Below, piece by piece: positions 2,281 to 61,443 of a stretch of 64,000 bases of DNA (position 1 is its first letter; the number at the start of each line of letters is the position of its first letter). This DNA comes from a virus (lineage: Duplodnaviria; Caudoviricetes). The translations under genes and the position numbers were made by a program. The notes under the pieces were generated by a model. It was given only the letters and a program-made list of their open reading frames with translations, was not told the origin of the DNA and searched no databases. The stretch lies in IMG/VR virus record IMGVR_UViG_3300042402_003952; one strand, 5' to 3'.

Positions 2281-2325
2281 AGTGGTTGAGAGACCACCAG
2301 CACCTTGACAATCTAAACCTTTAAT

Positions 2326-2398
2326 GGGTCTGTTGCATAGCGGCTAATGCACCTGGCTTTTAACCAGTATATCGTGGGTTCGAGTCCCACCAGACCCA
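2326..2398 (+). tRNA. tRNA-Lys(UUU)
   Basis: Acceptor GGGTCTG/CAGACCC; anticodon loop CT-TTT-AA; TTCGAGT T-loop. Confidence 0.95.
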
Positions 2399-2436
2399 TT
2401 GACCGCTACAGTTCGGTCATTAAACATAAACTGTTC

Positions 2437-2518
2437 GGGTAGGTGTCCGAGTGGTTAATGGAGGAGGTCTGTAAAACCTCTGGCTCTGCCTACGGGGGTT
2501 CAAATCCCTCCCTGCCCA
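2437..2518 (+). tRNA. tRNA-Tyr(GUA)
   Basis: GAGGT-CTGTAAA-ACCTC anticodon arm; long variable arm; TTCAAAT T-loop. Confidence 0.95.
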
Positions 2519-2522
2519 CCTT

Positions 2523-2596
2523 GACCCATTAGTGTAGCGGTTTATCACGCCACCCTGTCACGGTGGAGATCACGGGTTCAAATCCCGTATGGGTCG
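2523..2596 (+). tRNA. tRNA-Asp(GUC)
   Basis: CCACC-CTGTCAC-GGTGG; acceptor GACCCAT/ATGGGTC. Confidence 0.95.
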
Positions 2597-2644
2597 TTGC
2601 TACGCTGCCTGTGGAGTATTCCTCCTTGGTGGTTGTAGCATCAT

Positions 2645-2716
2645 GGTCCTATCGTCTAGTGGTGAGGACATCACTCTTTCACAGTGAAGACACGGGTTCA
2701 AATCCCGTTAGGACTA
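2645..2716 (+). tRNA. tRNA-Glu(UUC)
   Basis: TCACT-CTTTCAC-AGTGA; acceptor GGTCCTA/TAGGACT. Confidence 0.95.
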
Positions 2717-2719
2717 CCA

Positions 2720-2796
2720 CGGAATGTAGCGCAGTTTGGTAGCGCATCTGTTTTGGGAACAGAGGGTCGCAGGTTCGAATCCTGTCATTCCGACCA
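2720..2796 (+). tRNA. tRNA-Pro(UGG), CCA encoded
   Basis: TCTGT-TTTGGGA-ACAGA; acceptor CGGAATG/CATTCCG followed by ACCA. Confidence 0.95.
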
Positions 2797-2869
2797 GGAA
2801 ACATAGCTTAGTTGGTAAAGCATTCGACTGATAATCGAAAGAGCACTGGTTCGAGTCCAGTTGTTTCCA
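2797..2869 (+). tRNA. tRNA-Ile(GAU)
   Basis: TTCGA-CTGATAA-TCGAA; acceptor GGAAACA/TGTTTCC. Confidence 0.95.
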
Positions 2870-2892
2870 TTGTTGCCTTAAGGCAACATTAA

Positions 2893-2982
2893 GGAAGTGT
2901 GGCAGAGAGGTCTAATGCAGTGGATTGCTAATCCGCCGATGTTCTTTAAGGGCATCCGTTGGTTCGAATCCAACCACTTCCG
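2893..2982 (+). tRNA. tRNA-Ser(GCU)
   Basis: GTGGA-TTGCTAA-TCCGC; long variable arm; acceptor GGAAGTG/CACTTCC; G73. Confidence 0.95.
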
Positions 2983-2984
2983 TA

Positions 2985-3064
2985 GGACTCCAGCAAGGTG
3001 CTTGCTAGGATATAAAAGACTGACGCCTCCCTCTTCAGAAAGAGTAACCAGCAGGTCAGCGTCC
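2985..3064 (+). ncRNA. unidentified structured RNA within the tRNA array
   Basis: GGAC/GTCC ends, AGCAAG-GTG-CTTGCT hairpin, CTGAC/GTCAG stem enclosing a CTCTT-CAG-AAAGAG hairpin; no tRNA T-loop. Confidence 0.4.
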
Positions 3065-3069
3065 ACTTT

Positions 3070-3141
3070 GGCAGTGTAGTTCAGTGGTAGAACAAGAGAT
3101 TCATACCCTCTATGTCGGTAGTTCAATTCTACCCACTGCCT
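3070..3141 (+). tRNA. tRNA with CAU anticodon (Met or Ile2)
   Basis: AGAGA-TTCATAC-CCTCT (A31-C39 mismatch); acceptor GGCAGTG/CACTGCC. Confidence 0.85.
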
Positions 3142-3142
3142 T

Positions 3143-3214
3143 GTGTCGTTAGCCTAGTGGTTAAGGCAGTAGTTTGTGGAACTACCTAGATGGGTTCAAT
3201 TCCCATACGACACC
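3143..3214 (+). tRNA. tRNA-His(GUG); G-1 not encoded
   Basis: GTAGT-TTGTGGA-ACTAC; acceptor GTGTCGT/ACGACAC; C73; base -1 is T. Confidence 0.9.
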
Positions 3215-3216
3215 CC

Positions 3217-3288
3217 GCCCTTATAGCTCAGTGGTAGAGCAACTCACTAGTAATGAGTAGGTCGTTGGTTCAAATCCGACTGAGGGCT
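3217..3288 (+). tRNA. tRNA-Thr(AGU), A34 anticodon
   Basis: ACTCA-CTAGTAA-TGAGT; acceptor GCCCTTA/TGAGGGC; U73. Confidence 0.9.
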
Positions 3289-3323
3289 CTCAACTATCTG
3301 AAATTTCCAGATAGTTCATACAA

Positions 3324-3395
3324 TCCAGAATCGACTAACTGGCAGGTCAGCACCCTTTGAAGGTGTACGTCTAGGTTCGAATCCTAGTTCTGGAA
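3324..3395 (+). tRNA. tRNA-Gln(UUG)
   Basis: GCACC-CTTTGAA-GGTGT; acceptor TCCAGAA/TTCTGGA. Confidence 0.95.
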
Positions 3396-3413
3396 TTGCC
3401 CCTAATGGGGCAA

Positions 3414-3590
3414 CAATCTGTCCAACACTGGGGTTCGACTCCCCACATCTCCACTCTTGGGGATGAACTGGCATTCGACTGGGCAGAGGGTTCTGAGAAT
3501 AAATCTCAACAACATCGTATCTTTCCGCAGAACTGCTGTTGCCGTTTGAGCAATAGCACTTTGAGCGAACTGGGGAGTAATCCCTTTTTC
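3414..3590 (+). ncRNA. ssrA: circularly permuted (two-piece) tmRNA
   Basis: T-arm TGGGG-TTCGACT-CCCCA and acceptor 3' strand CATCTCC-A (3429-3453) come before the 5' strand GGGGATG (3459-3465, G3.U70) and ..ATTCGAC; helix TCTGTCCA/TGGGCAGA; tag ORF 3505-3549 LNNIVSFRRTAVAV* resembles cyanobacterial ANNIVSF... tags. Confidence 0.9.
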
Positions 3591-3591
3591 T

Positions 3592-3666
3592 GTTGGGTTG
3601 GTGCAATTGGTAGCATCTCGGTCTCCAAAACCGAAGATCAGAGTTCAAGTCTCTGGCCCTTCGCCA
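3592..3666 (+). tRNA. tRNA-Trp(CCA), with two U-U mismatches in the acceptor stem
   Basis: TCGG-TCTCCAAAA-CCGA anticodon arm (loop CT-CCA-AA); G73 plus CCA; acceptor GTTGGGT/GCCCTTC. Confidence 0.8.
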
Positions 3667-3667
3667 T

Positions 3668-3744
3668 ACCCTCTTAACTCAGTGGACCAGAGTGCTTGGC
3701 TACGAACCAAGAAGTCGCAAGTTCGAATCTTGCAGAGGGTGCCA
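3668..3744 (+). tRNA. tRNA-Arg(ACG), CCA encoded
   Basis: CTTGG-CTACGAA-CCAAG; acceptor ACCCTCT/AGAGGGT. Confidence 0.95.
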
Positions 3745-3781
3745 TTTAAATCTAAATAGCAACAAGAGGTGTGATAGGAAA

Positions 3782-4252
3782 ATGGAATTAGTAGAACCAC
3801 ACTCAACTATACTAGTTTTGAATAGTTCTTACGAGCCACTACACTTCACTAATTGGAAACGTGCAATAGTTTTACTTTTCAAACAGAAAGCAAAACTTAT
3901 CTCCAAGAGAATTATTCGTTTGGTGAATTATGTGAAAATTCCATTTTCCTATGGAAGATCAGATTACCCGACGAGAGCACTCATCTATAAACGGGATGAT
4001 TATGAGTGTCAGTATTGTGAGTCTAAAAATGACCTTACAATTGACCACATAATTCCCCGCTCAAAAGGTGGTAAAGATACTTGGGATAATTTAGTTGCTT
4101 GTTGCACATCTTGTAATCTCAAAAAAGGAAATAAACTTCTTAAAGAGACTAATATGATCTTAAAGAGTATTCCGCAAGCACCAATTAGTAGAGTAATACT
4201 TGATATTCAGAAAACAAAAGTTTCTGAATGGAAGGACTATTTGTTTCAGTGA
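3782..4252 (+). CDS. HNH endonuclease (McrA/HNH_5-like) inside the tRNA array
   Basis: LVLNSSYEPL...RDDYECQYC...LTIDHIIPRSKGGKDTWDNLVACCTSCNLKKG; AGGA-type RBS before ATG 3782. Confidence 0.9.
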   Translation: MELVEPHSTILVLNSSYEPLHFTNWKRAIVLLFKQKAKLISKRIIRLVNYVKIPFSYGRSDYPTRALIYKRDDYECQYCESKNDLTIDHIIPRSKGGKDTWDNLVACCTSCNLKKGNKLLKETNMILKSIPQAPISRVILDIQKTKVSEWKDYLFQ

Positions 4253-4347
4253 GAGATTGACAAATTTTTGAAAATACCCTAATATATAAAGACAGAGGTT
4301 AAGTCCCTGTTACATCCTTATGAGGTGTATCACACTTAATCCATCAT

Positions 4348-4422
4348 CGTGGGGAAGTGTAATGGTTGCACAGAAGTCTCATAAGCTTCAGGTAGGTGGT
4401 TCAACTCCATCCCCCGCCTCCA
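4348..4422 (+). tRNA. tRNA-Met(CAU), initiator-like (C1 mismatch), CCA encoded
   Basis: C1:C72 mismatch; GAAGT-CTCATAA-GCTTC; lacks the three G-C anticodon-stem pairs typical of fMet. Confidence 0.8.
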
Positions 4423-4495
4423 GCCCTTGTATTCCAATGGTAGAGAAGGTGGACTTAGAATCCATACAGTGTAAGTTCGAATCTTACCAGGGGCA
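4423..4495 (+). tRNA. tRNA-Leu(UAG) with a short variable loop
   Basis: GTGGA-CTTAGAA-TCCAT; 5-nt variable region ACAGT; A73. Confidence 0.9.
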
Positions 4496-4535
4496 CTTGA
4501 CAATCAAACTTAAATAGTTTATAATTGTCTTATAA

Positions 4536-4607
4536 GCGGAGTTAGTTCAGCGGTAGAACGCTATCCTTCCAAGTTAGATGTCGTCGGTTCGATTCCGATA
4601 CTCCGCT
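4536..4607 (+). tRNA. tRNA-Gly(UCC)
   Basis: CTATC-CTTCCAA-GTTAG; acceptor GCGGAGT/ACTCCGC; U73. Confidence 0.9.
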
Positions 4608-4659
4608 CTGAACCTTCGGGTTCTATAAACACACAAACACACTTCATAGGAGAATACTT

Positions 4660-4857
4660 ATGACGCCTTATCAACTTAGATTTGAAGTTTTTAAGCAAGC
4701 TTATGCGATGCTTTCGGATAATTATCATGTAGAGTTTGCAAAAGCAGAATGCTCTAATGGTGGCAAATTGCCGGATGGATTTGATTTAAAATATCCAACT
4801 CTTTCTGATGTTCTTGGGCACGCAGAAACGATTAATGATTTTGTAAGTTCTAAGTAA
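4660..4857 (+). CDS. hypothetical protein (65 aa)
   Basis: AGGAGA RBS; MTPYQLRFEVFKQAY...YPTLSDVLGHAETINDFVSSK. Confidence 0.7.
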   Translation: MTPYQLRFEVFKQAYAMLSDNYHVEFAKAECSNGGKLPDGFDLKYPTLSDVLGHAETINDFVSSK

Positions 4858-4865
4858 TAGAACAT

Positions 4866-4937
4866 TCCCCTGTGGCGCAGCGGTAGCGCGAGAAACTGTT
4901 AATTTCCAGGTCACAAGTTCGAATCTTGTCGGGGGAG
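4866..4937 (+). tRNA. tRNA-Asn(GUU)
   Basis: Loop CT-GTT-AA; acceptor TCCCCTG/CGGGGGA; G73. Confidence 0.9.
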
Positions 4938-4956
4938 TTGCTATCAGTAGCAAACT

Positions 4957-5034
4957 GTAGGTGCCAAATACCCCTTCTGGTTAATGCTGGAAGAAGTAAA
5001 GAGTGTGGACATAGGTAAAGTCCACAACACCTAC
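4957..5034 (+). ncRNA. unidentified three-way-junction RNA between tRNAs
   Basis: GTAGGTG/CACCTAC closing stem with inner hairpins CTTCTGG/CTGGAAG and GTGGAC/GTCCAC. Confidence 0.4.
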
Positions 5035-5039
5035 CACAA

Positions 5040-5111
5040 CCTCTGGTAGTCTATTGGTAAGGACGGGCGGATAACGCACTTGGAAACTAGGTTCGATTCC
5101 TAGACAGAGGT
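5040..5111 (+). ncRNA. tRNA-like RNA with a non-canonical anticodon arm
   Basis: Acceptor CCTCTG/CAGAGG, D-arm GTC/GAC with TGG, T-arm CTAGG-TTCGATT-CCTAG; the anticodon region GGGCGGATAACGCAC gives only a ~5-nt loop. Confidence 0.6.
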
Positions 5112-5114
5112 AAC

Positions 5115-5187
5115 GGGAGCATAGCTCAGCGGTAGCAGCGTCTGCTTTACACGCAGAATGTCGGGGGTTCGAATCCCTCTGCTCCCA
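5115..5187 (+). tRNA. tRNA-Val(UAC)
   Basis: TCTGC-TTTACAC-GCAGA; acceptor GGGAGCA/TGCTCCC. Confidence 0.95.
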
Positions 5188-5214
5188 CTTGCATAAATAT
5201 TGAAAAAGAGTATA

Positions 5215-5649
5215 ATGGAAAAACTGTTTAAACTTTTAAGTGATGCTCAGTCATCACTTTTTGTTTTATTTCATAAAACTTGGGCATTTCATTGGAATGT
5301 AGTTGGTGAAGATTTCACACAACTACATCAACTCTTTGGTGGACAGTATGAGACTATGTTTGAAGAGATTGATCGTCTTTCTGAACATATGAGATACTTA
5401 AATGTAAAACCATTAAGTTCTCTTTCAAGAATGCTTGAAGTGACTCAAATCAAAGAGTCTGCAAGTTCAACTGGAGCAAAAGAAATGCTTCAGGAACTTC
5501 TGGATAATAACACCAAGTTTTGTGAGTTAATGGCAGAGATTTCGGAAGAAGCAGAAGAACAAAAGTCTTATGCAACTGCCAATCTAGTTCAAGACTTAAT
5601 GGAATCTCATGGTAAATTTGTATGGATGTTGAGATCACATTTACAGTGA
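5215..5649 (+). CDS. dps: Dps / ferritin-like DNA-protecting protein
   Basis: HKTWAFHWNVVGEDFTQLHQLF...QYETMFEEIDRLSEH and ESHGKFVWML are Dps-family motifs. Confidence 0.9.
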   Translation: MEKLFKLLSDAQSSLFVLFHKTWAFHWNVVGEDFTQLHQLFGGQYETMFEEIDRLSEHMRYLNVKPLSSLSRMLEVTQIKESASSTGAKEMLQELLDNNTKFCELMAEISEEAEEQKSYATANLVQDLMESHGKFVWMLRSHLQ

Positions 5650-5664
5650 TAAGGATGAAGAAAA

Positions 5665-5916
5665 ATGATTTCAATAAGATGTAAAGATTGCAATAAAGAA
5701 TTAACAGGACACCCATCAAAAACAGTTACTTGTGGGTGTCCTAATATGGCAACAATTCGTGGAGACAAGATTTCGGCACTTGACTTATCTCGAATTGTCA
5801 TGCTAAACTCTCTAAAAGAAAATCAAAACAAAAGTGTGCTTACTTCTCAAGACATTGCTTGGCAAGAAGCACGTCGTCAACGTAAAGTAAGACGACTTGA
5901 TTTTGAAGTCCGTTGA
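5665..5916 (+). CDS. hypothetical Zn-ribbon-like protein
   Basis: CKDC...CGCPN cysteine pattern. Confidence 0.7.
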   Translation: MISIRCKDCNKELTGHPSKTVTCGCPNMATIRGDKISALDLSRIVMLNSLKENQNKSVLTSQDIAWQEARRQRKVRRLDFEVR

Positions 5917-5927
5917 GGACTTAATTT

Positions 5928-6014
5928 GGAAGGTCAATCCGATTGGCGACGGAACCGCTCTTGAAAAGCGTTGAGGTGTTAAAGCCCTTGGGAGTTCGAC
6001 TCTCCCACCTTCCG
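5928..6014 (+). tRNA. tRNA-Ser(UGA)
   Basis: CGCT-CTTGAAA-AGCG; long variable arm; acceptor GGAAGGT/ACCTTCC; G73. Confidence 0.95.
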
Positions 6015-6127
6015 TTTAGAAAAGTTACAAATTTAACAATTTCTTCAACAGTGTTAAGATATCAACACAAAAAGTTGACTGCGAAATACCTGTGATTAGT
6101 ATATAGTAGTATCACGGGGACGAACCG

Positions 6128-6277
6128 ATGGATCAACATACTTACGAAAATTGGGTGAAAATCAAAGAAACATTTGAAACTTCTGGTAATATTGATAATA
6201 TGTTTTACAAAAGAGCCGTTCAAATTGTTAAAACAAGAGTCGATCCTCTTGCAAAGTTTTTGGGAGATGAGAAGTGA
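6128..6277 (+). CDS. small hypothetical protein (49 aa)
   Basis: MDQHTYENWVKIKETFETSGNIDNMFYKRAVQIVKTRVDPLAKFLGDEK; GGGGA RBS; TGATG coupling to the next ORF. Confidence 0.65.
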   Translation: MDQHTYENWVKIKETFETSGNIDNMFYKRAVQIVKTRVDPLAKFLGDEK

Positions 6278-6444
6278 TGGAACCTGGGGATGAATTTATT
6301 AGTAGGTCTGAAGTGCAGGAGATGATCGACCAAGCTATTGACAAACACAATAAAACTGCTACAATAATATCAGCAGCAATCGGTTCGGTTCTGCTCTTCT
6401 TCTATGCCCACGGCGTCATTGCTATTATAGATAGAGTACAATGA
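6277..6444 (+). CDS. small membrane protein (55 aa)
   Basis: MEPGDEFISRSEVQEMIDQAIDKHNKTATIISAAIGSVLLFFYAHGVIAIIDRVQ; one C-terminal TM segment. Confidence 0.65.
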   Translation: MEPGDEFISRSEVQEMIDQAIDKHNKTATIISAAIGSVLLFFYAHGVIAIIDRVQ

Positions 6445-6560
6445 GACACTTTGCTCATTTAATTTTGGATAATCAGGTTTCGCTTTTTATCCTTTGCTAC
6501 CTCTTGACAATGGTTCCAATCATGGGTATAATGATTATACACCAAACAAAAGAAAAATAA
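6441..6560 (+). CDS. small membrane protein (39 aa)
   Basis: ATGA overlap; MRHFAHLILDNQVSLFILCYLLTMVPIMGIMIIHQTKEK. Confidence 0.55.
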   Translation: MRHFAHLILDNQVSLFILCYLLTMVPIMGIMIIHQTKEK

Positions 6561-6636
6561 CGGAGTATCGCCTAACTTGGTCATGGCACCTGCTTTGGGA
6601 GCAGGAATAATTTCGGTTCAAATCCGAATACTCCGA
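6561..6636 (+). tRNA. tRNA-Pro(UGG), second copy
   Basis: CCTGC-TTTGGGA-GCAGG; acceptor CGGAGTA/TACTCCG. Confidence 0.9.
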
Positions 6637-6652
6637 TCATAAAAATAACTTT

Positions 6653-6880
6653 ATGAAAATGCAAGAACTAGAAGAACTTCAATCCTTTACAGTCGAAGAG
6701 TTTCAATCTGATTTTGACAATCTAATACAAAGAGTAGAAAACGGTGAATCATTTATCATACGAGATGGAAATAATAGCGCAGTGATAGTTCCTTACAACG
6801 AAACCATAAAGTACGCAATAGAATCAACTGTGGATGACGAACTGATACGTCTTCACACAGACCACGAAGAAGGTTCTTGA
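6653..6880 (+). CDS. Phd/YefM antitoxin-like protein (orphan)
   Basis: SFTVEEFQSDFDNLIQRVENGESFIIRDGNNSAVIVPY fits the Phd/YefM N-terminal pattern; acidic tail; no adjacent toxin seen. Confidence 0.5.
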   Translation: MKMQELEELQSFTVEEFQSDFDNLIQRVENGESFIIRDGNNSAVIVPYNETIKYAIESTVDDELIRLHTDHEEGS

Positions 6881-6905
6881 CACAGAGTTCCAGATCCTCT
6901 ATAAT
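6877..6905 (+). promoter_or_regulatory. consensus sigma70 promoter for the Ile(UAU)/CAU tRNA pair
   Basis: TTGACA-N17-TATAAT exact. Confidence 0.85.
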
Positions 6906-6919
6906 AGATTCAGATTCAA

Positions 6920-7007
6920 GCGAGTGAGACTTGGTAGTCAGAGGGCACTTATAACGCCTTTCCGCCAGATTAGCGGCTTTGACCTGGTTCGAATCCAGGC
7001 ACTCGTA
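6920..7007 (+). tRNA. atypical tRNA, UAU anticodon (Ile) with a long variable arm
   Basis: Acceptor GCGAGTG/CACTCGT; small D-arm GAC-TTGGTA-GTC; loop CT-TAT-AA; variable stem CCGC/GCGG; T-arm CCTGG-TTCGAAT-CCAGG. Confidence 0.75.
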
Positions 7008-7036
7008 TTGTTATTCGTGATTTGCGAATAGCGAAT

Positions 7037-7109
7037 GCCCGTTTGGCCCTCTGGTGAAGGCAATCTGCTCATAACAGATAGAAGGTCGGATCGTAACCGA
7101 CAACGGGCA
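7037..7109 (+). tRNA. tRNA with CAU anticodon (Met or Ile2), non-canonical T-loop
   Basis: ATCTG-CTCATAA-CAGAT; T-arm GTCGG-ATCGTAA-CCGAC (A54 instead of T54). Confidence 0.8.
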
Positions 7110-7157
7110 TTTTTTAATAAAACTCATATAAATAAATAGGACTGTCCTATTATAAGT

Positions 7158-24740: not shown

Positions 24741-24805
24741 AGAATACTCAAAGCGCCCCAAAAGGGCGCTTTTTTAATAAATAGAATATCGAATGGATAA
24801 GGACA

Positions 24806-25495
24806 ATGAGAGTAGATCTTCATAACTTTTTTCAGTATTATGATCCAAAGAATCCTAAACATGTTGCAGCAGTCGAACAACTAGAAGTTGACTTAAAGGA
24901 TTCTCCTCTACTTGACGATAGTTCTAATTGGGTCAAAATTTATAGAACAAAACCAACTGTTCCGGGAGTCCTACCCGTTCCTTTTTATCCACAGACAGAT
25001 AATTATAGAGATGCGCAAAGAACCTGCAATTCATCTGCTTGTGCAATGTGCCTAGAGTATTTCAAACCAGGCACTCTCCAAGGAGCAAAGGGTGATGATA
25101 CCTATATTCAAAAAGTATTTGCAATTGGTGATACAACTGATCACACCGTACAGACAAAAGTTCTGGAAGGTTATGGTATTAAGTCACGATTTAGTTACAA
25201 TCTTGGGTTTGCTGATCTTGATCGTGAGTTATCCGCTGGGAGACCTGTTGTTATTGGTATCCTTCACAGGGGCACTCTATCTGCACCTACTGGTGGGCAC
25301 ATGGTTGTAGTGATTGGGAAGAGAGGTGAGGATTATGTTGTGAACGATCCTTACGGTTCTCTGAATGATGGATATACTGGACCAGTCACAAACGGTAAAG
25401 GTGCGGTGTATAAGAAATCTGATCTGAACTTCCGTTGGTTAGAAAAAGGTAAAGATAAGACTGGTTGGGGGCGTATTTTTGACGCAAAAAAGTAG
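24806..25495 (+). CDS. C39-like cysteine peptidase domain protein; 0-frame product of a probable -1 frameshift locus
   Basis: YPQTDN...RTCNSSACAMCL...GGHMVVVIG...VNDPYG (Q-C-H-D arrangement); ends GAC GCA AAA AAG TAG. Confidence 0.8.
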   Translation: MRVDLHNFFQYYDPKNPKHVAAVEQLEVDLKDSPLLDDSSNWVKIYRTKPTVPGVLPVPFYPQTDNYRDAQRTCNSSACAMCLEYFKPGTLQGAKGDDTYIQKVFAIGDTTDHTVQTKVLEGYGIKSRFSYNLGFADLDRELSAGRPVVIGILHRGTLSAPTGGHMVVVIGKRGEDYVVNDPYGSLNDGYTGPVTNGKGAVYKKSDLNFRWLEKGKDKTGWGRIFDAKK

Positions 25496-25986
25496 AAAGT
25501 TCTACTCCTGATTCGAGTAAAAGTGATATATCCATAAAAGGAGTAGAACTTATAAAAGAATTTGAAGGATGTCACTTAAATGCTTATCCAGACCCTTTAA
25601 CAAAAGGACCACCGATTACAATTGGTTGGGGAAGCACTAGAGACTTTGACGGAACGCCATTTAAAATAGGTAGAGTGATTACTCAAAAGTATGCAGACAC
25701 TCTACTTGAGTTTGATTTAAAGAATAGATTTTTACCATCACTTCAAAGAATACCTTACTGGAATGAAATGAATGAAAATCAACAAGGAGCTCTTCTATCT
25801 TTTGCTTATAATCTTGGTGCTGGTTTTTACGGGTCTTCCAATTTTAATACCATAACCAGAGTTCTTAAGAATAAAGAGTGGTCTAAAGTTCCTGATGCTT
25901 TATATCTTTACCGCAATCCTGGAACAAGTGTGGAAGCGGGTTTGAAAAGAAGAAGAGTTGCAGAAGGTAAACTCTGGTCTTCTTAA
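25492..25986 (+). CDS. GH24 (T4/lambda-superfamily) lysozyme domain, probably translated by -1 frameshift from the upstream ORF
   Basis: Frame open 25483-25986: GVELIKEFEGCHLNAYPD...TIGWGST...QQGALLSFAYNLG...GLKRRRVAEGKLW; the catalytic E-x8-D-x8-T region lies upstream of the first GTG (25675) and no ATG/GTG/TTG precedes it. Confidence 0.85.
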   Translation, partial: VESSTPDSSKSDISIKGVELIKEFEGCHLNAYPDPLTKGPPITIGWGSTRDFDGTPFKIGRVITQKYADTLLEFDLKNRFLPSLQRIPYWNEMNENQQGALLSFAYNLGAGFYGSSNFNTITRVLKNKEWSKVPDALYLYRNPGTSVEAGLKRRRVAEGKLWSS

Positions 25987-26219
25987 TCATCCATCTTTGC
26001 TTTTAATCCAAGCAACGCAGTAAACAAAGTAAACAACGCACTATATCCTTTGTCTATAGAGTTTTCGCACTTTATAGATGGGGGATTTTTTAATTCTCCT
26101 TTTGCATTGGCACTTTCAATAGATCCAGGGATCATAAAGTTGCAGTTGGTAAATGTAATACCAACATACCCTACAGTGCAAACTACAATAATAATGATTA
26201 ATTTGTCTAGTATTTTCAT
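25983..26219 (-). CDS. small two-TM membrane protein
   Basis: LIIIIVVCTVGYVGITF and ALFTLFTALLGL hydrophobic segments. Confidence 0.6.
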   Translation of the reverse strand: MKILDKLIIIIVVCTVGYVGITFTNCNFMIPGSIESANAKGELKNPPSIKCENSIDKGYSALFTLFTALLGLKAKMDD

Positions 26220-26689: not shown

Positions 26690-26760
26690 CCATTAACCGA
26701 GACCTATGGGGTGTATAAATTACGTCTCTCATATCTTCTCTAGGGGTGAGAAGAAATATT
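26690..26760 (+). ncRNA. structured psbA 5' leader (PhotoRC-II-like)
   Basis: GAGAC...GTCTC pairing and TTCTC-TAGGGGT-GAGAA hairpin upstream of psbA; family assignment from recall of cyanophage psbA leaders. Confidence 0.5.
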
Positions 26761-26806
26761 GAACCCTGTTCGTCCCCACGAACTCTTACTTAACCCTTTT
26801 TCAAAT

Positions 26807-29180
26807 ATGACTGCTTCAATCGCTTCACGCCGTTCTGGCGAAAACCTCTGGGAACAATTCTGTTCCTGGGTAACTTCAACCGATAATAGACTGTATGTTG
26901 GTTGGTTCGGAGTCCTTATGATTCCTTGCCTTCTTGCTGCTACAACTTGTTTTATTATCGCTTTCATCGGTGCTCCCCCTGTAGACATAGACGGTATCCG
27001 TGAACCCGTTGCTGGTTCACTAATGTATGGAAACAACATCATCTCTGGTGCTGTTATTCCAAGTTCTAATGCCATTGGATTGCATTTTTACAGCATCTGG
27101 GATGCTGCTTCTCTTGATGAGTGGCTTTATAAATAATATTGGGTCACTTTAAATCGGGTGAACTGCTGGAAAGCTAAGTTCTTTATGAAACACAAACATC
27201 ACCTTACTCCAAAATATCTTGGTGGTTCTAACGAATCCCAAAATCTTGTAGAAGTTTCTACAACTCAACACGCTATGTTTCATTATTGTAACTGGCGTCT
27301 TTGGGGAAACGAAGAAGATAAGATTGCTTGGAAAGCACTTGCAGGATACTCTAAAAAAGAGGAAATAATTCATCAAGTTATTTCTCTTGCAGGTAAAAGA
27401 GGTGGTAAGGTTGCAAAAGAAAGCGGACAACTTCGGTCTGCTGCTCTTAAACAACCAAGAAGTGTAAGGCAAAAGATTGGTAAAAATCTTATCAACTATG
27501 CCTACAAAAATCCAAAGAATGCAACACAAGAAACTCTTACTAATAGAAAATACAGTAAAGTATTTCACATTTATGAAAAACTAACTGAAAGGACTATTGG
27601 TAATCATCTTGGGGATGTAGTTTTTAATCCAGAAGAAGATAAAACACTCAAAACTGTTTGTTCTATTATTCTGGAAAAATATGGGGTAAAAGTTTATCCT
27701 TCACATCTTAATAGTGTTGCTAATGGAAATAGACTTTTAACAAGTGGTATTTCTTGTAGTTGGATTTTAGAGAATATGCCAATCAGCATCCAAGCCACAG
27801 ACGATACTTCTGTGGAAGGTTCAGAGACTACTGGGTTCAACAAGCGTGTTGAGTAATACCAGATTAGCGCCCGACATCTTATAAAAAATAAGATGAAGAT
27901 ATAGTCCAGTCCATATGGAAACATATGGTTCCCCCGACTGCTATAATGGGGGTCCTTTCCAACTTGTTGTCTTCCACTTCCTCATCGGCATCTACTGCTA
28001 TATGGGTCGTGAATGGGAACTCTCTTACCGTCTAGGTATGCGCCCTTGGATTATGGTTGCTTATAGCGCACCTGTTGCTGCTGCGAGTGCTGTATTCCTG
28101 GTCTATCCTTTCGGTCAAGGTTCTTTCTCTGATGCGATGCCTCTTGGTATCTCTGGTACATTCAACTACATGCTTGTATTCCAGGCAGAGCACAACATCC
28201 TGATGCACCCCTTCCACATGCTTGGAGTTGCTGGTGTCTTCGGTGGTTCTCTTTTCTCTGCTATGCACGGATCTCTTGTCACCTCTAGTCTTGTACGTGA
28301 GACTACAGAAAATGAGTCACAGAACTACGGATACAAGTTCGGACAAGAAGAAGAAACCTACAACATTGTAGCTGCTCATGGTTATTTTGGTCGCCTTATC
28401 TTCCAATATGCTTCCTTCAATAACTCACGTTCACTTCACTTCTTCCTTGCTGCTTGGCCCGTTGTAGGCATCTGGTTCACTGCTCTTGGTGTTTCTACAA
28501 TGGCTTTTAACCTCAATCGTCGGGGTCCCGTCTTAGCAATTTGACGGTAAACATCGGGTGAACTGCTGGAAGCCCTCCATAAATGGGTAATCAGCATCCA
28601 AGTCCAAAGTACACTTTGGAAAGGTTCAGAGACTACCTGAGGAGTTCAGTCTCCTTAATAACAGGAATAAGTGCCCGACATCCTAAATGGATGAAGATAT
28701 AGTCCACTCCTTAAAGATGGTAAATTTAAGGGTTCAGTGCAACGGTTTTAATTTCAATCAGTCCATCATTGACTCACAAGGTCGTGTCCTTAATACTTGG
28801 GCAGATGTACTGAATCGTGCAGGTCTCGGAATGGAGGTCATGCATGAACGGAACGCTAGATTTGTTGGTGTTCTTGCTTAGGAATAAGCATTAGTAAAAT
28901 CGGGTTAAACGGGGAAACTCTCTATGAGACAATCCCGTACCAAGTCAGAAAGGGTTTAAGTTTTCTGAAAGGTCTAACGACTAGATGGTGAGTCCCAACA
29001 ATAATCCATCCACGAATGCCCGACATCCAGAACGGATGAAGAGATAGTCTGAACTTACTAGTGATAGTAAGAAGTAGAGGATAAAGAACCACTACGATAA
29101 CAAAATTGCACAACTTCCCACTTGACCTTGCCGCAGCAGAAGCAACACCAGTTGCTCTTACTGCTCCCGCAATCGGTTGA
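26807..29180 (+). CDS. psbA: photosystem II D1 protein in four exons (26807-27126, 27941-28513, 28740-28857, 29109-29180)
   Basis: Joined exons total 1083 nt = 360 aa plus stop; junctions restore EWL|YNGG, AFNL|NGFN and ERNA|HNFPLDLA. Confidence 0.97.
27127..27940 (+). mobile_element. group I intron 1 in psbA, encoding an HNH endonuclease
   Basis: 5' exon ends in U with P1 GTGGCT/GGTCAC; terminal G at 27940; core motifs AATCGGGTGAACTGCTGGAA, AATCAGCATCCAAG, GGTTCAGAGACTA, AGATATAGTCC. Confidence 0.92.
27185..27856 (+). CDS. intron-encoded HNH homing endonuclease
   Basis: [30 protein letters not shown]; the 3' end reads through intron core motifs. Confidence 0.85.
   Translation: MKHKHHLTPKYLGGSNESQNLVEVSTTQHAMFHYCNWRLWGNEEDKIAWKALAGYSKKEEIIHQVISLAGKRGGKVAKESGQLRSAALKQPRSVRQKIGKNLINYAYKNPKNATQETLTNRKYSKVFHIYEKLTERTIGNHLGDVVFNPEEDKTLKTVCSIILEKYGVKVYPSHLNSVANGNRLLTSGISCSWILENMPISIQATDDTSVEGSETTGFNKRVE
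28514..28739 (+). mobile_element. group I intron 2 in psbA (ORF-less, 226 nt)
   Basis: Core motifs ATCGGGTGAACTGCTGGAA, AATCAGCATCCAAG, GGTTCAGAGACTA, AGATATAGTCC; terminal G at 28739; removal restores CT|C AAC GGT. Confidence 0.92.
28858..29108 (+). mobile_element. group I intron 3 in psbA (ORF-less, 251 nt) near codon 334-336
   Basis: P1 GAACGCT/GGTGTTC; motifs AAATCGGGTTAAACGGGGAA, CAATCCCGTACCAAG, GGTCTAACGACTAG, AGATAGTCT; terminal G at 29108. Confidence 0.92.
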
Positions 29181-61370: not shown

Positions 61371-61443
61371 GCTCCTAAAGCATTTAGTGGCGATGTACCT
61401 GACTTGTAATCAGGAGAGGATGGTTCAATTCCGTCTGGGAGCT
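61371..61443 (+). tRNA. tRNA-Thr(UGU)
   Basis: CCTGA-CTTGTAA-TCAGG; acceptor GCTCCTA/TGGGAGC; U73. Confidence 0.9.

Follow-up and report, generated by a model that had tools for sequence, protein, structure and literature searches.

A candidate dnaX/IS3-type −1 ribosomal frameshift joining a peptidase to a GH24 lysozyme in a freshwater T4-like cyanophage

The locus and its closest described counterparts

In Escherichia coli dnaX, tRNA-Lys(UUU) reads the heptamer A_AAA_AAG, a simple stem-loop follows a few nucleotides (nt) downstream, a stop codon lies near the shift site, and two products with a common N-terminus (tau and gamma) arise in a ratio set by the RNA. In the orfA-orfB pairs of the IS3 family (IS911, IS150 and IS3), A_AAA_AAG or A_AAA_AAA stands at the end of a short upstream open reading frame (ORF), the −1 ORF has no efficient start of its own, a stem-loop or pseudoknot acts as the stimulator, and the fusion protein carries the catalytic domain. 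Among tailed phages, the established cases of recoding concern tail chaperones, capsid proteins and a small number of other proteins; in lambda G/GT and in T7 gene 10A/10B, a short protein and an extended one are made at a set ratio through conserved −1 recoding. Here we describe a signal of this kind at a lysin locus. The locus lies in a 64,000-nt stretch of viral DNA (IMG/VR record IMGVR_UViG_3300042402_003952; Duplodnaviria, Caudoviricetes), referred to as the window, and comparison of its sequence with related loci indicates that programmed −1 ribosomal frameshifting of the dnaX/IS3 type very probably joins a putative cell-wall peptidase to a GH24 lysozyme.

The upstream ORF (24806–25495; this and all features below are on the plus strand) encodes 229 amino acids (aa) and ends in ...FDAKK-TAG, written GAC GCA AAA AAG TAG. 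The slippery heptamer A_AAA_AAG (25486–25492; GC-A AAA AAG) stands in the X_XXY_YYZ register of this frame, hereafter the 0 frame, and is abutted by its TAG stop (25493–25495), the position of a ‘shifty stop’ in the sense attributed to Weiss et al. in 1987, which would help to stimulate the slip. Starting 4 nt 3′ of the heptamer, a perfect 13-base-pair helix (25497–25509 with 25539–25551) closes a 29-nt loop; this stem-loop (25497–25551), which is both the minimum free energy (MFE) structure and the centroid structure, is the proposed frameshift stimulator. The −1 frame is closed by a TGA one codon before the heptamer (25480–25482) and is then open from 25483 through its stop at 25984–25986, reading VESSTPDSSKSDISIKGVELIKEFEG... 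Because of that TGA, a productive shift is possible only within 25483–25495, and most related loci show a similarly narrow overlap of the two frames. Read in the −1 frame after a slip, 25492–25986 (164 codons and a stop) encodes the linker VESSTPDSSKSDISIKGV and a complete GH24 lysozyme of the T4/P22 type, with its catalytic segment EFEG...AYPD...TIGWG (Glu-Asp-Thr) at 25558–25623. The earliest ATG, GTG or TTG in this frame, GTG 25675, lies 3′ of the catalytic EFEG (25558–25569). A first-pass annotation, made from the letters of the window, had proposed this arrangement, and its description of the 229-aa ORF and its last codons, the heptamer and its register, the stem, the frame boundaries and the complete lysozyme domain ahead of the first start (now also a PF00959 match) agrees with the sequence throughout.

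Relative to dnaX, the polarity is reversed: there the shift makes the shorter product, and here it would make the longer one, adding a whole catalytic domain. The 0-frame stop directly abuts the heptamer at this locus, and dnaX has an upstream Shine-Dalgarno (SD)-like element, specific to dnaX and not found at every site of this type, of which no counterpart is demonstrable here. The IS3 elements differ in encoding a transposase, as opposed to cell-wall hydrolases of a lytic phage, and in that the overlap is here only about three codons; a pseudoknot was not seen at this locus, though none was looked for. In lambda G/GT and T7 10A/10B, the recoded genes encode virion-assembly proteins with a non-enzyme extension, whereas the extension here is a second catalytic domain on a lysis-type enzyme. 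Lysin loci that yield a long and a short polypeptide, probably acting together, are known from the CTP1L, Lys170 and Ms6 LysA endolysins, where an internal in-frame start provides the second product (PMC4777826, PMC7098653, PMC3111421); those pairs share the C-terminal wall-binding part, whereas the pair predicted here has its N-terminal part in common and would arise by recoding where the coding sequence of the short form ends. Two cyanophage proteins of the same PHROG families as the window ORFs need no recoding, each being encoded by one ordinary ORF: the ACG-2014f fusion (YP_009134422, 405 aa; 59–61% identity to the window in the peptidase and 64–68% in the lysozyme) and the S-CREM1 fusion, which has the reverse domain order (UYA57466, 393 aa; 71% and 78–82%).

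Constraint on the heptamer, the stop codon and the stem

Two scans of IMG/VR gave 160 loci, to which five loci of cultured phages and the window were added; 159 were classified, and L-numbers below label the loci of this comparison set. The frameshift layout, defined by the heptamer, a 0-frame stop at most one codon further on and a lysozyme in the −1 frame, was found in 105 loci with 70 distinct junctions. We call such a locus strict where the nearest start codon is more than 4 nt away from the 0-frame stop; this holds for 95 of the 105, and ten also have a start codon overlapping the stop.

Synonymous positions of the heptamer are fixed. Across 62 distinct strict junctions, the codon preceding the Lys pair is GCA (31), GTA (27), ACA (3) or ATA (1), so that the amino acid varies and the third base is A in 62/62, against a background use of 8–41% for the same A-ending codons. 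The Lys pair itself is AAA-AAG in all 62; elsewhere in the same genes, this spelling accounts for 13 of 79 Lys-Lys dipeptides. Within the long ORFs of the window, AAAAAAG occurs 24 times and only the copy described here is in the slippery register, where about eight (a third) would be expected by chance. This scarcity fits a heptamer that is truly shifty in this system, and it suggests selection against accidental slippery sites in the coding sequence of the window. The stop codon is constrained as well: among 69 distinct AAAAAAG junctions, 60 have it right after the heptamer and nine have a single sense codon in between, and it is TAG in 54. The 48 window ORFs of at least 150 aa end in TGA 26 times, in TAA 19 times and in TAG three times.

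The stem shows constraint of its own. In the window, its folding energy is −18.4 kcal/mol (z = −3.4), and none of 200 shuffled sequences was equally stable. The 67 distinct junction segments have medians of −14.6 for the MFE and −3.8 for z, with z below −2 in 90%, and the helix begins 0–8 nt past the heptamer in all distinct strict junctions except two. The same codons in relatives that have no need of a frameshift give median z values of −0.45 (fusions) and −1.55 (overlapping starts; Mann-Whitney p = 4e-8). Three helix families (A, to which the window belongs, B and C) occupy nearly the same place with unrelated sequences, GTTCTACTCC/GGAGTAGAAC, TCAACACCAC/GTGGTGTTGA and CGCCAACCAAC/GTTGGTTGGCG, and code different amino acids; RNAalifold reports 3, 3 and 2 compensatory pairs for them. 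In the alignment of the window’s family (alignment A1; three compensatory pairs), 96.7% of cells are paired, versus 31–52% with the partner strand slid out of place. The second family has 97.3% of cells paired, the slid controls across both families range from 22 to 57%, and the covariation score was matched by 0 of 500 shuffles in the window’s family and likewise by 0 of 500 in the second. Comparison with synonymous recodings of the same peptides gave median energies of −15.6 for native stems and −8.5 for the recodings, and 81% of native stems fall at or under the 5th percentile of their recodings. No stem was found in two own-ATG homologues with a heptamer-like A-run, S-SRM01 (A_AAA_AAG) and L140 (A_AAA_AAA). 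The first-pass annotation had proposed that homologues be examined for heptamer conservation and stem covariation; with the heptamer conserved at synonymous sites and the stem covarying, its dnaX/IS3-type frameshift is supported.

The same conservation bears on transcriptional slippage, in which the polymerase would add one A and ribosomes would read the resulting A7 mRNAs normally. One extra A does give precisely the in-frame fusion, natural A7 genomes (L104–L108) are in frame at the same place, and the RNA contigs available lie outside the junction. Such slippage, however, needs no register, no G, no adjoining stop and no helix, all of which are conserved, with a helix that covaries. A6 is also short for this mechanism, and the run never exceeds A6 in the 105 frameshift-type loci. 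Bacterial polymerase slippage sites, for example Thermus dnaX and Shigella mxiE (Baranov et al. 2005), are said to comprise about nine or more A or T residues. We consider slippage by the polymerase very improbable.

The stop codon and its surroundings speak to a second alternative, termination-reinitiation or a non-AUG internal start, for which an Ile codon after AAGGAG is the candidate; either would yield a free lysozyme and no fusion. Relatives with ATGA or GTGA overlaps clearly couple their genes in this way (S-SRM01, the L012 class, L140, L146 and L150), and in the window AAGGAG (25538–25543) lies 8 nt ahead of ATA 25552. Reinitiation, however, would lack a start: in the window, S-PM2 and the 95 strict loci, the −1 frame contains no ATG, GTG or TTG at a distance of 4 nt or less from the 0-frame stop, and where that stop is TAG or TAA, the −1 codon overlapping it is GTA. 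A few loci, the L009 and L064 groups, do have a GTG or TTG in frame 21–27 nt 5′ of EFEG, from which the lysozyme would begin only 7–9 codons before the catalytic Glu. As for the Ile codon, AAGGAG is found in stem family A only, where it is locked in the helix, and initiation there would delete helix residues before the catalytic Glu, where own-start homologues keep 11. An internal SD with an Ile start in the 3′ arm of the stem was rejected, stem families B and C being without AAGGAG. Since reinitiation would also leave the conserved NNA AAA AAG unexplained, we regard this route to the lysozyme as very improbable.

A frameshift signal built on a homopolymer run invites the concern that the run is a sequencing error, which the first-pass annotation had raised. 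Lake and freshwater metagenome runs contain DNA nearly identical to the window, and contigs from two other such runs, of different studies and years, bridge the heptamer junction with no differences and no gaps (X7, spanning 25294–26100, and X8, spanning 25368–26100); the IMG/VR contig L006, 99.6% identical in the peptidase, has the junction unchanged. These contigs exclude a homopolymer error. The cultured phage S-PM2 has the same layout (L002, NC_006820, 1495–2678): GAT GCA AAA AAG TAA is followed by a lysozyme in the −1 frame that has no start. Its annotation lists p156 as hypothetical and p157, a ‘putative lysin’, as a 72-aa C-terminal fragment from an internal ATG, and the full GH24 domain begins in the −1 frame directly past the p156 stop. 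The tblastn coordinates of both halves in a second S-PM2 record (LN828717) likewise imply a −1 offset. In this model phage, p156 and p157 seem to have been mis-annotated for a long time, and the predicted junction peptide of the S-PM2 fusion would be ...FDAKKVTSSTSR...

These matches, and the state of the lysozyme frame, tell against a decaying gene or an assembly artefact, according to which a one-base deletion broke an ancestral fusion and left the lysozyme as a dead remnant. In-frame fusions in the marine sister clade and relatives that differ by one base are what such a history would leave. It is nonetheless hard to reconcile with the same offset in 105 loci, 70 distinct junctions and S-PM2, or with the contigs of two other metagenome runs that match the window. 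The −1 ORF is intact in 92 of the 95 strict loci and runs off the contig in the remaining three, all 95 have the E..D..TxGxG catalytic motif, and in the lysozyme frame the ratio of nonsynonymous to synonymous substitution (dN/dS) has a median of 0.19. By these sequence measures the lysozyme part is under purifying selection, as a living gene; a dead gene would not keep a covarying helix and fixed synonymous sites. Decay or artefact is almost certainly not the explanation.

Several observations count against programmed frameshifting or weaken the case for it. i) Related loci share ancestry, so that the raw counts given above overstate the number of independent observations. ii) The G-rich run GGTTGGGGG does stand where the first-pass annotation placed it (25463–25471, 14 nt 5′ of the heptamer), and it is at most a candidate SD-like stimulator: the run codes the G-W-G of the conserved GWGR motif, its TGGGG motif is present in all layout classes and equally common in relatives with no need of a frameshift, and because the coding constraint is inseparable from any other, it cannot be credited as a stimulator. 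iii) In a few relatives (L040, L045, L017–19, L116 and L150), a TGA after the heptamer creates a −1-frame GTG or TTG, and termination-reinitiation could operate there too. iv) Of four metatranscriptome runs that have a few sequence words in common with this stretch, the two that were aligned have contigs reaching only parts of the lysozyme ORF, with the junction outside. v) A_AAA_AAG is reportedly far less shifty where tRNA-Lys(CUU) is abundant, as attributed to Tsuchihashi and Brown in 1992. With these points weighed, ribosomal frameshifting of the dnaX/IS3 type remains in our judgment the very probable reading.

Alternative layouts among relatives and the two enzyme modules

The first-pass annotation had named in-frame fusions and lysozymes with their own ATG among homologues as evidence that would speak against a frameshift. 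Both kinds occur in some relatives; they do not overturn the reading, because they are a minority nested among frameshift-type loci and because the own-ATG forms are without the stem or the heptamer. A tree built from 113 distinct peptidases groups the marine fusions in a single clade. Its other clade (97 sequences) is mostly of the frameshift type, with the other layouts nested inside it; 66 distinct frameshift-type peptidases are in the tree. By class, 14 loci of the marine clade are in-frame fusions without the heptamer, 11 are in-frame fusions with it (the A7 variants, the ACG-2014f clade and L109), and 25 have an ATGA overlap and no heptamer. The three others are S-CREM1, with its fusion in reverse order, and two single cases, one of them DSL-LC03, whose two genes lie apart.

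In five contigs of two lineages (L104–L107 and L108; about 2186–2195), A7 replaces A6, giving in-frame fusions in which the stem is retained. The frameshift and fusion genotypes are therefore one base apart, and a peptidase-lysozyme fusion protein is evidently tolerated. The ACG-2014f clade (L003 and L086–L089, about 2213–2250) and L109 (about 2204–2225) are in-frame fusions carrying A_AAA_AAG TCT GA; in ACG-2014f, a GGAGGG/CCCTCC hairpin lies 5 nt further on, with weak z values (−1.2 to −1.8). As a lead only, a −1 slip in these loci would stop after one codon and may release the peptidase alone, a polarity like that of dnaX. Stand-alone peptidases also occur, for example in S-SRM01. Both products predicted for the window thus exist elsewhere as ordinary proteins, since relatives encode the two enzymes as in-frame fusions or as separate genes.

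In the ATGA layout (L012, L022, L039, L043, L071–L078, L119, L124–L136 and L148), the peptidase ends in GWGR(I/V)F(K/S)-TGA, overlapping the lysozyme ATG, and the lysozyme has an additional, conserved N-terminal module of about 60 aa (MSIKFIDAVKNHKDLPHQNDAW...) without a Pfam or PHROG match. The window and L009/L010 are 95% identical in the peptidase and have different linkers and stem families, with lysozymes only 86–87% identical; recombination between peptidase and lysozyme modules seems to have its boundary at the heptamer junction.

The 229-aa product consists of an N-terminal module of about 50 aa and a Peptidase_C39_2-like cysteine peptidase. The peptidase matches the PF13529 profile over its full length (E 2.5e-11, 44.8 bits against a cut-off of 24) as well as phrog_3617 (positions 1–235) and phrog_10051 (‘endolysin’), and two Cys and three His are invariant in the peptidase part of 17 fusions. 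The ‘endolysin’ labels of its relatives are annotations, and we treat the window peptidase as a putative cell-wall enzyme. A sequence search of solved structures with the peptidase half returned chance-level matches only. In an AlphaFold model of the natural fusion L104, this half is poorly predicted (predicted local distance difference test scores of 36–60 over residues 51–110), and all Foldseek matches of the model fall in the lysozyme half. That half is confident and matches GH24 endolysins (9kbq_A, template modelling score 0.85) along with the P22 and T4 lysozymes. The −1 ORF of the window matches PF00959 (E 5.4e-22, 78.9 bits against a cut-off of 22.3) and phrog_3617 at positions 241–405, so that the two window ORFs are consecutive halves of one profile.

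The N-terminal module of about 50 aa (window 24806–24958) has no Pfam match and occurs with either enzyme: the stand-alone lysozyme of DSL-LC03 (L005, 2274–2438) has its own copy, 48% identical to that of the window (E 2e-14). The module of the ATGA-class lysozymes bears a weak resemblance to the peptidase N-terminal module by hhalign (E 0.003, probability 10%), and BLASTP between the two found nothing. These occurrences hint that the lysozyme often needs an N-terminal module, which the frameshift would supply through fusion. The idea is not general, because the short own-start lysozymes of the S-SRM01 type carry no module.

Genomic setting, proposed mechanism and biological meaning

The window is part of a freshwater T4-like cyanophage of the Kyanoviridae, and the closest cultured relatives for the locus are Synechococcus phages S-PM2 and S-SRM01. 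Its neighbours in the window include genes for a ferredoxin, a peroxiredoxin-like protein and psbA with an HNH ORF; the psbA (D1) reading frame at 26759–27856 is interrupted, and an HNH-type ORF lies at 27158–27856. Upstream of the 229-aa ORF, a GCGCCC-CAAAA-GGGCGC hairpin followed by T6 (24753–24775), read directly and also returned by a pattern scan on the minus strand, looks like the terminator of the peroxiredoxin-like gene and the 5′ border of the lysin unit. Directly after it lies AATAAATA (24776–24783), which matches the T4-type late promoter TATAAATA at seven of eight positions and which we take to be a putative late promoter by comparison with the T4 late consensus. A ribosome-binding site, AAGGA (24799–24803), is separated from ATG 24806 by 2 nt (24804–24805). 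AATAAATA and AAGGA are the sole start signals at the locus, with no counterpart ahead of the lysozyme. Past the lysozyme stop, a pattern scan places a terminator-like hairpin with a T-run at 26045–26086, the likely 3′ border of the two-ORF unit.

In the mechanism that we propose, the locus would be transcribed as a single late unit whose only start codon is ATG 24806. The majority of ribosomes would make the 229-aa peptidase product and stop at TAG 25493. Some would pause with Lys-tRNAs on AAA-AAG, held by the stem-loop and the adjoining stop, slip one base back to AAA-AAA and go on with GUA GAA AGU..., yielding a 393-aa fusion (229 + 164) of N-terminal module, peptidase, linker and GH24 muramidase. 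Slippage would be the sole route to the lysozyme domain, and each mRNA would give two cell-wall enzymes in a ratio set by the RNA signal. We infer that the shift is made by ribosomes rather than by RNA polymerase, as well as its efficiency, the existence of both products and their role in lysis; the fixed ratio of two proteins put forward by the first-pass annotation is of the same standing. A speculative and rather unlikely extension is that the two forms bind each other by way of the N-terminal module that they have in common, giving a mixed lysin complex in which the RNA signal sets the stoichiometry.

The tRNA complement of the window bears on how the heptamer would be decoded, since the shiftiness of A_AAA_AAG rests on AAG being read mainly by tRNA-Lys(UUU). 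Of its 23 tRNA genes, 22 form one array (2325–7110) and the other stands at 61371–61443; among them is tRNA-Lys(UUU) (2325–2399), which would decode the heptamer and slip on it, and tRNA-Lys(CUU) is not among the tRNA genes found in the window. A genome scan with the ferredoxin of the window matched no picocyanobacterial host genome. In two filamentous cyanobacterial metagenome-assembled genomes (MAGs), which are not the host, the scan showed tRNA-Lys(UUU) as well as an array of about 20 tRNA genes that includes the UUU and the CUU form. If the host has a tRNA-Lys(CUU) that reads AAG firmly, the fusion would be made later, as the phage tRNA accumulates. Whether the frameshift is in this sense a tunable device, with the build-up of phage tRNA-Lys(UUU) late in infection raising slippage and helping to time lysis in a phage group for which we know of no described holin, is a speculative idea that we hold to be rather unlikely.

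Two side observations concern contigs of MAGs. A Leptolyngbya foveolarum MAG (G002:C126; L172, L174 and L180) has at least 20 tRNA genes in about 3 kb, including Lys(CUU) and Lys(UUU), an array that resembles a phage or mobile-element tRNA island. Short contigs in MAGs assigned to ‘Acidibacter’ and ‘Bacteroidota’ (L166, CAZRFN010000182, and L167, JBEDAP010000264) encode ferredoxins 86–87% identical to that of the phage and are probably cyanophage contigs mis-binned into bacterial MAGs.

Full-text literature searches brought up no description of a frameshift in S-PM2 or in a cyanophage lysin and, within the literature searched, no established case in a lysin gene. According to the PRFect paper, lysins belong to the genes ‘known to contain a frameshift’, a statement for which it refers to Shearman et al. 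1994 on a lactococcal phage; a study of in-frame embedded lysin genes has that reference in its reference list only. The signal is of the well-known dnaX/IS3 kind, and what is new to us is the class of gene in which it stands and its biological use.

A large set of cyanomyoviruses, uncultured for the most part, has kept the signal, as has the model phage S-PM2. The reading proposed for p156/p157 would therefore correct the annotation of a model phage and can be tested in a cultured system. For annotators and metagenome pipelines the locus is a caution, since lysozymes of this kind are miscalled as truncated or missing. The relatives form a natural genotype series of frameshift, A7 in-frame fusion, ATGA-coupled genes and reverse-order fusion, which lets one ask why a phage wants a peptidase plus a peptidase-muramidase. 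To our knowledge, host lysis by T4-like cyanophages is poorly understood, and for that reason a defined pair of lysis enzymes would be useful for work on cyanobacterial mortality.

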